From NCBI GenBank assembly GCA_964559835.1, contig CAZLJE010000013.1:54209-118208 (forward strand): a DNA stretch of 64,000 bases. The letters run 5' to 3'. A program made the translations under genes and the position numbers. Positions 17,834 through 59,250 of the stretch are shown one piece after another (the first letter of the stretch is position 1; the number at the start of each line of letters is the position of its first letter). The notes below the pieces were generated by a model, which ran no database searches, was not told where the DNA came from, and worked only from the letters and a program-made list of their open reading frames with translations. The stretch is from an uncultured Terriglobales bacterium (GTDB lineage Bacteria; Acidobacteriota; Terriglobia; Terriglobales; Acidobacteriaceae).

Positions 17834-18481
17834 TCAAACCTCTTGAACGATCGTCGGATCCGCTGCTGTGACCTGCACGGTTCTCGACTCGCGTACATGG
17901 CGCTGAACCAGCCTGTGGACCACGTAAATACAGATTGAAACGACTGCAACACCTGCCAAGACGGTTCCTGCTCGGCGAGCGTAACCAGCCGCGCGGTCCA
18001 AGTCGTGACTGAAGACGTATCCCAGTCCCGTGTAGGCGCATGAATAAATGCCCGCGCCAAGCGCGTCACAAGCCAGGAAGCGGAGCCGGCTGGTTCGGGA
18101 AGTTCCAGCCAGGGGCGGCGCTACCGCGTCCAGTCCTGGGACGAATTTGGCAAGCACGAGCAGCGGAAGGCCAAACCGGGCGAACGTCTCTTTGGCCCTG
18201 CGATCGTGGGCGTCGGGGTTGCGTGAGAGGCGGTGAATGAAATGCAAGACCTTGTCCCCGCGCCGCCGGCCCGCCTCGTACCACACCCAGTCAGCCAGTA
18301 CACAGGCAATGACAGCCAGACAGATCGAGGCGGTCAGGCCCAATTTACCGGCGGCTGAGAGCGCGCCGGCGGCGAGCAGGAAAAGAGGTCCGGGTAACGG
18401 TAACCCTATCTGGTGCGCGAATAACGCAGCGAACAGGATGGCGTAGCCATGCTTCAGAACGAATTGGACAATCACATTCAT
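17834..18481 (-). CDS. DedA/VTT-domain membrane protein
   Basis: KHGYAILFAALFAHQIGLPLPGPLFLLAAG..RFGLPLLVLAKFVPGL. Confidence 0.8.
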   Translation of the reverse strand: MNVIVQFVLKHGYAILFAALFAHQIGLPLPGPLFLLAAGALSAAGKLGLTASICLAVIACVLADWVWYEAGRRRGDKVLHFIHRLSRNPDAHDRRAKETFARFGLPLLVLAKFVPGLDAVAPPLAGTSRTSRLRFLACDALGAGIYSCAYTGLGYVFSHDLDRAAGYARRAGTVLAGVAVVSICIYVVHRLVQRHVRESRTVQVTAADPTIVQEV

Positions 18482-48642: not shown

Positions 48643-49458
48643 TTGGGAAGCGTGCACGAAACCGTCGCACAACTCGCGAAGCACGGCTACGTCGTACTAT
48701 TCGCGTGGGTCGCGGCCGAGCAGCTGGGGCTGCCTATCCCCGCCGTTCCGGTCCTTATCGCCGCCGGCGTGTTGTCCGCGCTGGGGCAACTCACGCTGCC
48801 GGGCGCGTTTGCCCTCGGTGTGCTGGCTTGCGTCATCGGTGATAGCGCGTGGTACGGAATCGGCAAGTGGAAGGGAACCGCGGTCCTTCAGACGCTCTGC
48901 CGGATGTCGCTCGAGCCTGAGTCGTGTGTGCGTCAGAGTTCGAACTTCATCTCGCGTCATGGCGCGCGCGCGCTGACGATCGCAAAGTTCATCCCCGGCA
49001 TCGGCGCAATGGCCGTTCCGCTGGCCGCGAATTCCAATGTCGCGCTTGTATCTTTTATCCTGTACGACCTCCTCGGCTGCGTGGCTTACGTCGGCGGGTA
49101 TCTGGTGCTCGGCCGGCTGCTCGGAGATAAGATCGACCAGCTCGACGTAGTCGCGGGATCGTTGAAGACCGCGACGGCAGGTTTCGCCGTACTCGGAACT
49201 GTGGCCATCCTCGGTTGGAGATACCGGCAGCGCCGAAAATTTCTCAGCGACCTGCGCATGTCGCGCATCCAGCCCGAGCAACTCATGGAGATGCTCGATC
49301 GCGGAGAGAACCCGTACATCGTCGATCTGCGGCATCCGCTGGATTTCCTGCCCGACCCGCGCGTGATTCCCGGCGCCGTCCGCATGTCTCCCGACGAAGT
49401 GACCGCCCGCCAGCAGGAGATTCCGCGCGATCGCGAGATCATTCTCTATTGCACTTGA
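48643..49458 (+). CDS. DedA/VTT-domain membrane protein fused to a rhodanese domain; ends at an in-frame TGA inside the rhodanese active-site loop (frame continues to 49617)
   Basis: KHGYVVLFAWVAAEQLGLPIPAVPVLIAAG (DedA); C-terminal IVDLRHP..EIILYCT-TGA. The next 52 in-frame codons encode the rest of the rhodanese fold. Confidence 0.8.
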   Translation: MGSVHETVAQLAKHGYVVLFAWVAAEQLGLPIPAVPVLIAAGVLSALGQLTLPGAFALGVLACVIGDSAWYGIGKWKGTAVLQTLCRMSLEPESCVRQSSNFISRHGARALTIAKFIPGIGAMAVPLAANSNVALVSFILYDLLGCVAYVGGYLVLGRLLGDKIDQLDVVAGSLKTATAGFAVLGTVAILGWRYRQRRKFLSDLRMSRIQPEQLMEMLDRGENPYIVDLRHPLDFLPDPRVIPGAVRMSPDEVTARQQEIPRDREIILYCT

Positions 49459-49463
49459 CCCAG

Positions 49464-49499
49464 CGAAGCCTCGAGCGCCAGTCTGGCGCTCAAACTTCG
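49464..49499 (+). other. SECIS-like stem-loop directly 3' of the in-frame TGA
   Basis: CGAAG/CTTCG lower stem, internal loop, GAGCGCCA/TGGCGCTC upper stem, apical loop GTC (49481-49483). Confidence 0.45.
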
Positions 49500-49644
49500 G
49501 AAGATGGGGGTCGTTCGCGTGCGGCCGCTGCTGGGCGGATTCAAGGAATGGAAAAAGCGCGGTTATCCGCTGAAAGAGACGCTATACGCCGTCGAAGCGC
49601 AATCCAGCGCGAAATAAGAAATAAAGCCTGAGCGATGAGGGCTG

Positions 49645-50535
49645 CTATTTGCTCGCGAGCGCTGCCTCTACCCGTTTGGCCTGCACGATCCCCGCAGCGT
49701 ACGCTCCCGCCAGCGCGACCAGGCATGCATGCCCCAGTTGCCAGTACCGATGGATCAGGACGTAGACGGTCCATCCATACAAGGTGGTTAATTGCATCAT
49801 GTCGCTGGGCCCGCGCTCGTCGGTGTCTTCGAGGAATTGGGAGATGTTCTCGAACCCGCCGGCCCAGCGCGAGTACACGCTCCAGAACGCCATCCCGCCC
49901 AGTATCAACAGTCCCCACCGAACCTGGTTACGCGAGATCGGACTGTCCGGACGCGCGTAGAAAGTCATCATCAGCAGAGTTGAGAGCACGTAGGCTCCGC
50001 CATCGCCCCAAAACGTAAAAAGCATCCTGGAATGAAAATCCGTTTGCAGGTTTCCGGCGATGATGAGGACGAGGACGACAGCGCTGACCCCCACCCAAAA
50101 CCAGCGCTCCATGCGGAACGCAACGTATCCGCCGGCGATCAATATCGCGCCCAGGATCACGCTGATCCAGCGGCTGCGTTCGCCGATGATCGTGAACCAT
50201 GCGGTAGGGAAGGCGTTATAGCCGCAGAACCATGCCGAAATGGCGTGCCCGCTTTCATGCACCCACATCGCCAGGAACGCCGTCATCGTGGGCATCGCCA
50301 GATTGACCACCCACCCGAACAACAACGCTCCTGGCACTGCAAACACTCGGCAGAGGAACTCAGTGTGCGCCTTTCGTTGTTCGATGGCGATGTCCACGGG
50401 CGATCGTTCCGGCGTGACGTCGCGCACTGCCGCCACCGCTTCCTGAAACGCCAGGTATTTGGAGAAGATGACACCGCACTTCAGACATTCATCCACTTGC
50501 TGCGGATGATCGAACTGACATTTCGGACATTGCAT
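49645..50535 (-). CDS. Zinc-ribbon plus polytopic membrane protein with HExxH motif (putative intramembrane metalloprotease)
   Basis: N-terminal CPKCQFDHPQQVDECLKCG, then several TM helices, one carrying WVHESGHAISAW. Confidence 0.5.
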   Translation of the reverse strand: MQCPKCQFDHPQQVDECLKCGVIFSKYLAFQEAVAAVRDVTPERSPVDIAIEQRKAHTEFLCRVFAVPGALLFGWVVNLAMPTMTAFLAMWVHESGHAISAWFCGYNAFPTAWFTIIGERSRWISVILGAILIAGGYVAFRMERWFWVGVSAVVLVLIIAGNLQTDFHSRMLFTFWGDGGAYVLSTLLMMTFYARPDSPISRNQVRWGLLILGGMAFWSVYSRWAGGFENISQFLEDTDERGPSDMMQLTTLYGWTVYVLIHRYWQLGHACLVALAGAYAAGIVQAKRVEAALASK

Positions 50536-51242: not shown

Positions 51243-52667
51243 TTGAAGGAGAGTTGTACGGCTACCCCGGACGTGATTCACGTGCATGACCAGCAGGCGG
51301 TCATCTCCAGCGAGCCCATGCGCAAGCTCATGGCGATGGTGGACCGTGTCGCCACCGGCGCCGCATCGGTTCTGATCACCGGCGAGACCGGCAGTGGCAA
51401 GGAAGTCGTTGCTCGTGCCATCCACGCCCGCAGCCTGCGCGCGAACAAACCCTGGGTAGACATCAACTGCGCCGCGTTACCCGAGCACCTGGTCGAGAGC
51501 GAACTCTTCGGTTACGAAAAAGGTGCGTTCAGCGGCGCCGACGCGGTCAAGCCCGGCATGTTCGAACTCGCCGACCAGGGAACGTTGTTCCTCGACGAGG
51601 TCGGAGAACTCGACCCCAAGATCCAGGTCAAGCTGCTGCGCGTACTCGACGGAGCTCCGTACTACCGGCTGGGCGGCAGCCGCAAGGTCGCTTTCGACGT
51701 CCGCATCGTCGCCGCCACCAACCAGCCGCTGGAGGACGCGGTCAAGAGCGGACGTTTCCGTAGCGATCTCTTCCATCGCCTGAGCCAGCTCCAGCTCCGG
51801 GTGCCCCCGTTGCGCGAGCGGCCGGACGACATCGTCGCCCTGGCGCGGTTCTACCTGGAGCAGGCGCGGCCCGGCGCATCGTTTATGCCGGACGTTCTCG
51901 ATGTACTCGCCGGGCAGGCTTGGCCGGGAAACATCCGCGAGCTGCGAAATGTTGTGATGCAGGCCGCGACCATGGCCGCGACGAACAAGATTGCCATCGC
52001 CGATCTTCCCGAAGATCTCCAGCGGGGTGCCCCAGTGGGTGCCCTGGGTAAGCCCCGTGTTGGCTTACCCGGGGACGTTTCCAGCCCCTACGCCCCCCCT
52101 ACCGCCCTCGACGATATGGAGAAACAGGCGATCCTTCGCGCGCTGGCCGCGTGCAACGGCCACCAGGGACTCGCCGCCGAACAACTGGGCATCTCTCGCC
52201 GCACCTTGAGCCGCAAGCTGAAGCAATTCCGCATCGAGTCCGGCTCCGACAGTAGCGCTGGCGTCTCGTCCGACCCTGCGCCCTCCGCCCTCCGCCCTAC
52301 CCCCCTCGGCAAACTCAGCTTCCAGCAGCACGAGTGTTTCCGCGCCTCCGTCGAACTGCCGGTGCGCGTACACGCCGAATCCGGCTTCTTCACCCTCAAG
52401 ACGCTCAATATCAGCGTTGGCGGCATGGCCCTGGAGGGCATCTCGGAACCGTACCGTCTCTCCGGTGATCTGAAGGTCGAATTTCATCTGCCGGCCGGAT
52501 TCGGATTCATCGTCGCCCGTGCACGACTGGTGTGGGCCGACGCACACGGCAAGGCCGGCGTGCGCTTCAACGATCTGCCGCCGGAGTGCCGCACCGCACT
52601 GAACCAATGGCTCGTCGAAGTGGAGCGGCAGGAAGGCTGGACCGTCGAGGAGACGGCCAACCGCTAG
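51243..52667 (+). CDS. Sigma-54-dependent activator with AAA+-HTH-PilZ architecture (no N-terminal sensor)
   Basis: [23 protein letters not shown], and a Fis-type HTH ([19 protein letters not shown]). C-terminal ~105 aa are PilZ-like ([31 protein letters not shown]). Exact start is uncertain. Confidence 0.85.
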
Positions 52668-59174: not shown

Positions 59175-59250
59175 GGTGCCCGTAGTTCAGCGGTAGAACC
59201 CCGGACTGTGGCTCCGGTTGTCGTGAGTTCGAATCTCACCGGGCACCCCA
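59175..59250 (+). tRNA. tRNA-His (GTG), with encoded G-1 and 3' CCA
   Basis: Manual cloverleaf: G-1 + GTGCCCG acceptor / CGGGCAC; D stem GTTC/GAAC; anticodon arm CCGGA-CTGTGGC-TCCGG; T arm GTGAG-TTCGAAT-CTCAC; discriminator C; CCA. Confidence 0.92.

Follow-up and report, generated by a model that had tools for sequence, protein, structure and literature searches.

Rhodanese selenoproteins have already been catalogued, among them a form with a cysteine-x-selenocysteine pair (CxU), NCBIfam NF041203 'rhodanese_LYCAU', with TKB26178.1 as its representative. Fusions of a rhodanese to a DedA membrane protein are noted in the DedA literature, which calls their connection to undecaprenyl phosphate (UndP) 'unclear', and the Cys forms of such fusions are annotated as 'DedA family protein/thiosulfate sulfurtransferase GlpE'. 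A DedA selenoprotein was not described in the searchable literature or annotations, and the 2026 selenoprotein catalogue has no entry for DedA, VTT or SNARE. Here we describe a DedA-rhodanese gene with an in-frame TGA (49456–49458, + strand) in a 64,000-nucleotide (nt) stretch of DNA, referred to as the window, from an uncultured Terriglobales bacterium (contig CAZLJE010000013.1, positions 54,209 to 118,208 of the forward strand). The TGA is read as a selenocysteine (Sec) codon served by a hairpin of the type of the bacterial selenocysteine insertion sequence (SECIS; bacterial form, bSECIS), and on the sequence evidence collected below this reading is given a probability of roughly 90%. Judged in the same way, the rhodanese of the window is related to the CxU rhodanese selenoprotein already known, and is set in a membrane-fused architecture that is undescribed by annotation or accessible literature.

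Conservation of the TGA and of the frame beyond it

The open reading frame (ORF) 48643–49458 (+) ended in ...REIILYCT followed by the TGA; the same frame continued past it (PSEASSASLALKLRKMGVVRVRPLLGGFKEWKKRGYPLKE...) for 52 codons (49459–49614, +) and was closed by TAA at 49615–49617 (+), which from the reading frame is the true stop codon. The read-through protein matched Pfam Rhodanese (PF00581; 48.5 bits, threshold 22.2) over residues 211–305 (49273–49557, +), a span that includes the TGA, and the post-UGA codons correspond to the last third of the rhodanese fold, as is also seen from their codon-position entropies and invariant residues (below). The initial annotation had placed the ORF, the TGA, the 52-codon extension and the TAA at these coordinates and had taken the downstream codons to complete a rhodanese, all of which was borne out; its product of 323 residues needs correction, the full-length read-through DedA(VTT)-rhodanese gene (48643–49617, +) having 324 codons from TTG 48643 and a product of 324 amino acids (aa), or of 321 aa from the alternative start GTG 48652. 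GTG 48652 is the start used in database entry P0001; the TTG start is matched by MGxxH, the start of consensus homologues. The predicted Sec is residue 272 (U272), and the TGC codon of Cys270 (49450–49452, +), invariant in 81/81 sequences, provides the C of the C-x-U motif, so that the active-site motif of the window protein reads LYC-T-U-P-S-E. TGA was the ordinary stop for 17 of the 46 predicted genes in the window; the genetic code is therefore standard.

For comparison at the DNA level, loci from 80 species-representative genomes were picked by similarity to the Sec-type query. The TGA column paired with a conserved Cys, TGA being present in 73/80 genomes and TGC/TGT in 7/80, a 73:7 ratio that is inflated because the loci were selected by similarity to a Sec-type query. 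Beyond this column the frame stayed open for 39–63 codons in all 80 genomes and encoded PNEA[S/T]SAR...RPL.GG..W. Most carrier genomes belonged to Terriglobia or to other Acidobacteriota and some to Methylomirabilota/Rokubacteria (TGA form for example in OY969786.1, OY970275.1 and CAWHXI010000002.1, Cys form in OZ255624.1, L016), and protein identity among the TGA-bearing species-level genomes was 40–76%. In an exhaustive search reduced to 150 representatives at 50% identity, ~54 ended at the TGA site and 48 read through with Cys; TGA is therefore used by about half of a large, diverse family. Among the 120 closest database proteins (100% to ~55% identity), 111 ended exactly at ...LYC[T/S], most of them with 271 aa, and the remaining 9 were full-length and read LYCT-C-P[N/S/G]E, in agreement with the Cys motif YC(S/T)CPNE that the initial annotation had given. 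Database entries for the TGA products were named 'VTT domain-containing protein' by NCBI and shortened to 271 aa; no entry with U at the TGA column was found, and a domain-only protein search gave mostly Cys-type fragments. The A at 49458 was checked in two independent Logan assemblies from different sequencing runs (SRR12266076 and SRR12266071); the TGA was identical in both, and an assembly error is therefore ruled out.

In a neighbour-joining tree the 7 Cys forms were dispersed singly among Sec forms, with L004 and L059 adjoining Sec sisters, which suggests several independent Sec-to-Cys replacements and subsequent SECIS decay. Two metagenome-assembled genomes, DATDHE01 (L033/L034) and DATLVZ01 (L039/L046), carried two TGA-type copies each on separate contigs, which are either paralogues or strain mixtures in the bin. 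The gene copy L054 (DATMKS010000045.1, labelled Verrucomicrobiia) nested tightly within the 'Candidatus Acidoferrum' clade; this suggests a mis-binned contig rather than presence of the family in Verrucomicrobia. Two Cys-type homologues on long contigs, L085 (2227–3178) and L086 (2067–3022), were split into two overlapping calls in different frames, probably by indel errors or as real pseudogenes and not by extra Sec sites.

Entropies were compared in 74 distinct TGA genes between codons +12 to +37 and 40 upstream codons, and amounted to 0.68/0.65/1.50 bits at codon positions 1/2/3 downstream of the TGA and to 0.82/0.53/1.42 bits upstream. This periodicity, being like that of the upstream codons, marks the downstream region as translated sequence under purifying selection. 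Invariant downstream residues were P, E, A, G, RPL, GG and W; at Gly +51, Pro +69 and Gly-Gly +78/+81 the residues were invariant and the third positions varied freely. No conserved downstream start codon was found among the compared loci, the ATG at 49504 of the window not being conserved in the other sequences.

The best NCBIfam match of the protein was NF041203 rhodanese_LYCAU (seleno)protein, with 83.7 bits and E = 7.9e-24, below the equivalog cut-off of 115. The window domain and TKB26178.1 were 33% identical over 103 residues in an alignment that was gapless through the motif and had Sec at the same column (IILYCTUPSEASSASLA in the window, IVLYCAUPNEYTSARLA in TKB26178.1). As structure model, an AlphaFold model of the Cys homologue P0016 (62% identical; mean pLDDT 79.7) was used. 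It showed the strand IILY (258–261), a three-residue turn C262-T263-C264 and a helix from P265, and the Sec-equivalent residue is therefore placed at the helix N-cap in this model; the top Foldseek matches were all rhodaneses, including the single-domain ones of persulfide-handling enzymes and YgaP.

The hairpin downstream of the TGA

Folding of 49456–49515 with RNAfold gave a lower stem (49464–49468/49495–49499) and an upper stem (49473–49480/49484–49491) with the loop GUC (49481–49483), at a minimum free energy (MFE) of −27.3 kcal/mol (z = −2.96; 1 of 200 dinucleotide shuffles was as stable). This is the structure proposed in the initial annotation, of which the core SECIS-like hairpin (49473–49491, +; 8-bp stem GAGCGCCA/UGGCGCUC, 22 nt past the UGA) stood as a family feature and the lower stem did not. 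The extended hairpin that includes the lower stem (49464–49499, +) was confined to the clade of the window, and the lower-stem pairs 10-43 and 11-42 formed in just 16/69 and 7/69 sequences; the lower stem, real in the window and not kept across the family, was rejected as part of the conserved element.

The bSECIS consensus, as given in PMC13188914, has a loop of 3–9 nt on an upper stem of 4–16 bp, a G within the first two loop positions that is usually followed by G or U, a spacing of 16–37 nt from the UGA to the apical loop and an MFE of at most −7.5 kcal/mol. A model of this consensus was coded and applied as four criteria (loop/stem, loop G, spacing and MFE). The window hairpin agreed with the model on all four, with a 3-nt loop GUC, an 8-bp stem, a spacing of 22 nt and −13.2 kcal/mol, which provides the SECIS prediction that the initial annotation had proposed as a check; the same was true of 69/71 distinct TGA genes, as against 2/7 Cys genes and 7.1% of same-gene control windows. 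The two TGA genes that failed, L073 and L074, had a bulged stem that was still found by RNAfold. Hairpins of the family mostly had a 5-nt loop and a stem of 6–7 bp, with the loops CGUGU, CGGGU, CGUGC and GUC; of the 69 TGA genes that passed, 61 had a spacing of 21 nt, and the loop G at +25 (T of TGA = 0; alignment column 26) was invariant (73/73).

Nearly every TGA gene had a core AGCGCC-N5-GGCGCU between +18 and +34, counted from the T of TGA, and the stem codons were frozen in these genes: Ala +21 was GCC in 73/73, Ala +30 was GCG in 71/73 and Ser +18 was AGC in 71/73, while codon +27 had a final G in 73/73 with Val, Ala or Leu as its amino acid. Third positions of invariant residues outside the stem had 1.0–1.9 bits. 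In two of the stem pairs both partners are third codon positions, and because these are frozen in TGA genes the hairpin is not explained by the conserved peptide. The 7 Cys genes varied at the frozen stem sites (Fisher p = 4e-4 and 3e-4, values that are indicative only, as phylogenetic relatedness makes them overstate independence). The closing pair 18-36 covaried (CG 24, GC 21, GU/UG 3; p = 1.5e-5); RNAalifold by itself recovered no more than the 5-bp invariant core, and its covariation term was practically nil. When the peptide of each gene was recoded synonymously 300 times, the TGA genes had −12.2 kcal/mol versus −6.7 kcal/mol for the recodings (mean z −1.9), and 5/7 Cys genes were at the recoding expectation (z −0.06 to −0.41). 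The case for selection on the RNA is made by the freezing of synonymous sites, by the comparison with recoded genes and by the difference between the TGA and the Cys genes. On the question raised in the initial annotation, whether the hairpin goes with the TGA, it was kept in the TGA genes and had decayed in most Cys genes (2/7 retained it). In the Cys-type genes L004 and L059 the SECIS-like hairpin was still intact (z = −3.6 and −2.0 versus synonymous recodings), apparently after a recent Sec-to-Cys conversion.

Alternative explanations and the selenocysteine machinery

The initial annotation had offered two outcomes, a Sec codon or a fresh nonsense mutation. The Sec reading is supported by the conservation of the TGA, purifying selection downstream, the bSECIS fit and the TGA-specific constraint on the stem; with the TGA, the open frame after it and the hairpin all found again in dozens of divergent genomes, chance is far from sufficient to account for the feature. 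A nonsense mutation of recent date, leaving a fresh pseudogene, or a wrong base at 49458 from base calling or assembly, would take no more than a single TGC-to-TGA change, and a very recent event would leave the downstream codons intact; yet 73 species-level genomes, ~54 of the 50%-identity clusters and two independent read sets had the same TGA, by which this alternative is refuted, and with purifying selection on the downstream region it is left with practically no probability. If the TGA were a true stop, the functional product would be a DedA protein of 271 aa whose rhodanese is incomplete, and what follows, hairpin included, would have another role, for example as a terminator or regulatory element. 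That is how every gene caller and NCBI annotate the gene ('VTT domain-containing protein'), and some termination at the UGA is expected even in genuine selenoprotein genes, but it is very hard to reconcile with 39–63 downstream codons that in 73 species stay in frame, conserve the C-terminal rhodanese residues and vary at third positions, and that have no conserved start codon of their own, with Cys-type homologues that are contiguous full-length proteins, and with the fold itself, since a rhodanese cut after the central strand would be without its active-site helix; we consider a true stop highly improbable.

Read-through could also occur without Sec, if a suppressor-type tRNA (an allo-tRNA or a selC*-like tRNA-Cys) inserted Cys, Ser or another residue and the hairpin merely slowed termination. 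Acidobacteria have reported tRNAs with 8/4 and 9/3 structures that are possible missense or nonsense suppressors, and neither the window nor the flanks of related loci showed any Sec machinery. To this explanation we assign a slim chance, as in 69/71 genes the size of the loop, the place of its G-U and the spacing fit a SelB-type bSECIS, the TGA column alternates with Cys only (the classic Sec/Cys signature), a homologous domain that has its Sec at this column is already catalogued as a selenoprotein, and a general suppressor would be costly where TGA is the normal stop for other genes of the window.

Several observations weigh against the Sec reading. When the 64-kb window and the flanks of 82 related loci were searched by tblastn, with the E. 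coli proteins SelD, SelA and SelB as queries, no selA, selB or selD was detected, and no tRNA-Sec was detected in the window with ARAGORN and Rfam; a null result from 64 kb and flanks carries no information on a genome of several Mb. Alignments disagree whether C270 or U272 matches the canonical catalytic Cys, the residue that opens the CX4-5[R/T] cradle loop of rhodaneses, and the loop U-P-S-E-A-S-S is without Arg. The GC-rich stem core is invariant, and covariation rests on one pair and the bulged variant of L073/L074. To these are added the inflation of the 73:7 ratio by the choice of query and the shared ancestry behind the Fisher values. In favour of the Sec reading, Sec use is on record for lineages in which the gene occurs. 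Acidobacteria are documented Sec users, as is the cultured Terriglobales member Occallatibacter riparius with AhpD-like, deiodinase-like and FdhA selenoproteins, and Sec-type hydrogenases occur in Acidobacteriota and Methylomirabilota.

Other candidate Sec sites were considered and rejected. A screen for a second selenoprotein gene in the window gave 17 TGA-joined frames with high GC content at third codon positions, all but one of which lay under stronger genes in other frames; the remaining frame (18048–18443) had a low-complexity R/S/A-rich translation. A second Sec site in the DedA domain was suggested by the N-terminally short homologues P0125 and P0128, in which the upstream VTT fragment was in a different frame, indicating frameshifts.

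The DedA domain and comparison with known systems

The DedA/VTT membrane domain (residues 32–158; 48736–49116, +) matched Pfam PF09335 VTT_dom with 44.4 bits (cut-off 33.9). It contains a CX8C motif, C86...C95 (LCRMSLEPESC; 48898–48927, +), with both Cys present in 81/81 sequences and the consensus C[KR]xx[LI]EP[DE][ST]C, which by alignment is not in E. coli YghB. We infer that the CX8C loop is cytoplasmic. The distant Cys-type homologue P0067 had lost both CX8C Cys together, which suggests that they work as a pair. Residues E39, D51, R130 and R136 of YghB are reported to be essential for UndP flipping; in the alignment E39 was kept, R130 was replaced by K, D51 by V/A/M and R136 by G, and the score against the NCBIfam UptA equivalog was 52.6 bits, far below the cut-off of 250. 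From the loss of D51 and R136 and the low UptA score, a canonical undecaprenyl-phosphate flippase is unlikely, and the DedA domain probably has another substrate than canonical COG0586 DedA proteins. The last helix is followed by a basic linker, WRYRQRRKF, which under the positive-inside rule suggests a rhodanese domain on the cytoplasmic side.

In the mechanism that we propose, the coding-region hairpin 22 nt past the UGA would act as a bacterial SECIS and recruit SelB, on which insertion presumably depends, carrying Sec-tRNA(Sec); the ribosome would insert Sec at the UGA and go on for 52 more codons. The product of ~324 aa would consist of an N-terminal polytopic DedA/VTT membrane domain, the basic linker and the rhodanese domain. 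Its C-x-U pair would likely be redox-active or chalcogen-carrying and give rise, at the membrane, to a selenenylsulfide or a persulfide/perselenide, and the invariant CX8C pair of the DedA loop may serve as relay partner. A further and rather doubtful idea is a transport-coupled chalcogen relay, in which a non-canonical DedA, devoid of the residues with which UndP flippases bind protons and phosphate, would move a sulfur or selenium species (for example selenite, thiosulfate or polysulfide) across the membrane and hand it over via the cytoplasmic CX8C to the C-x-U of the tethered rhodanese; if true, it would be the first biochemical role for DedA-rhodanese fusions and would account mechanistically for the long-known genetic connection of DedA with selenite uptake or resistance.

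Under the Sec reading, the gene would belong to a widespread selenoprotein family whose members are shortened by annotation in many soil and peat Acidobacteriota and some Methylomirabilota. Few selenoproteins are on record for Acidobacteriota, and recognition of the family would correct many truncated gene models, add a membrane-anchored member to the bacterial selenoproteome and indicate a selenium need in abundant soil bacteria. It would also single out the rhodanese site in DedA-rhodanese fusions as important for catalysis; the existence of matched forms with Sec and with Cys and the invariant CX8C offer concrete residues for mutation, and the independent Sec-to-Cys switches with later SECIS decay would be a clean natural example of the loss of a Sec site.

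The surroundings of the gene had no conserved neighbours beyond local synteny among close relatives, and none that were selenium-related. Convergent with it lies a 296-aa ORF (49645–50535, −) with an N-terminal zinc-ribbon-like CPKC...CLKC followed by several hydrophobic helices; it had no Pfam match and was conserved only in the closest relative, L001. The gene at 51243–52667 (+) encodes a sigma-54 enhancer-binding protein with AAA+, HTH_8 and a C-terminal PilZ and without an N-terminal receiver domain, which could be a cyclic-di-GMP-responsive sigma-54 activator. A tRNA-His (GTG) at 59176–59250 (+) was the sole tRNA or Rfam match in the window.

Among known systems, the E. coli fdhF-type SECIS shares with the window hairpin a position in the coding region just 3' of the UGA, a small apical loop with G-U, a GC-rich upper stem and a spacing inside 16–37 nt. 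The G-U is at nucleotides 23–24 in the fdhF SECIS and at nucleotides 26–27 from the U of UGA in the window, and a conserved bulged U is not evident in the window family. With NF041203 and TKB26178.1 the window protein has in common the rhodanese fold, the Sec column and the existence of Sec and Cys forms in both families. They differ from it as stand-alone domains of ~126–150 aa (126 model positions; 150 aa in the representative), and TKB26178.1 has an N-terminal, twin-arginine-like signal peptide (TRRNLMKR) and is probably exported, whereas the rhodanese of the window is fused behind a ~200-aa DedA domain with the extra invariant CX8C. The Cys-form DedA (COG0586)-rhodanese fusions have the same two-domain architecture and are direct homologues at 48–62% identity with Cys at the Sec column; unlike them, the gene of the window has TGA/Sec and the SECIS hairpin, as does about half of the family. 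In the membrane-anchored rhodanese YgaP of E. coli and in the thiosulfate-uptake pair YeeE/YeeD, a sulfurtransferase domain is tied to the inner membrane or to a transporter with conserved Cys. The rhodanese domain of YgaP was a Foldseek match to the P0016 model; the membrane parts of YgaP and YeeE/YeeD are not homologous to the DedA domain and both systems use Cys, not Sec; here the comparison is one by analogy.

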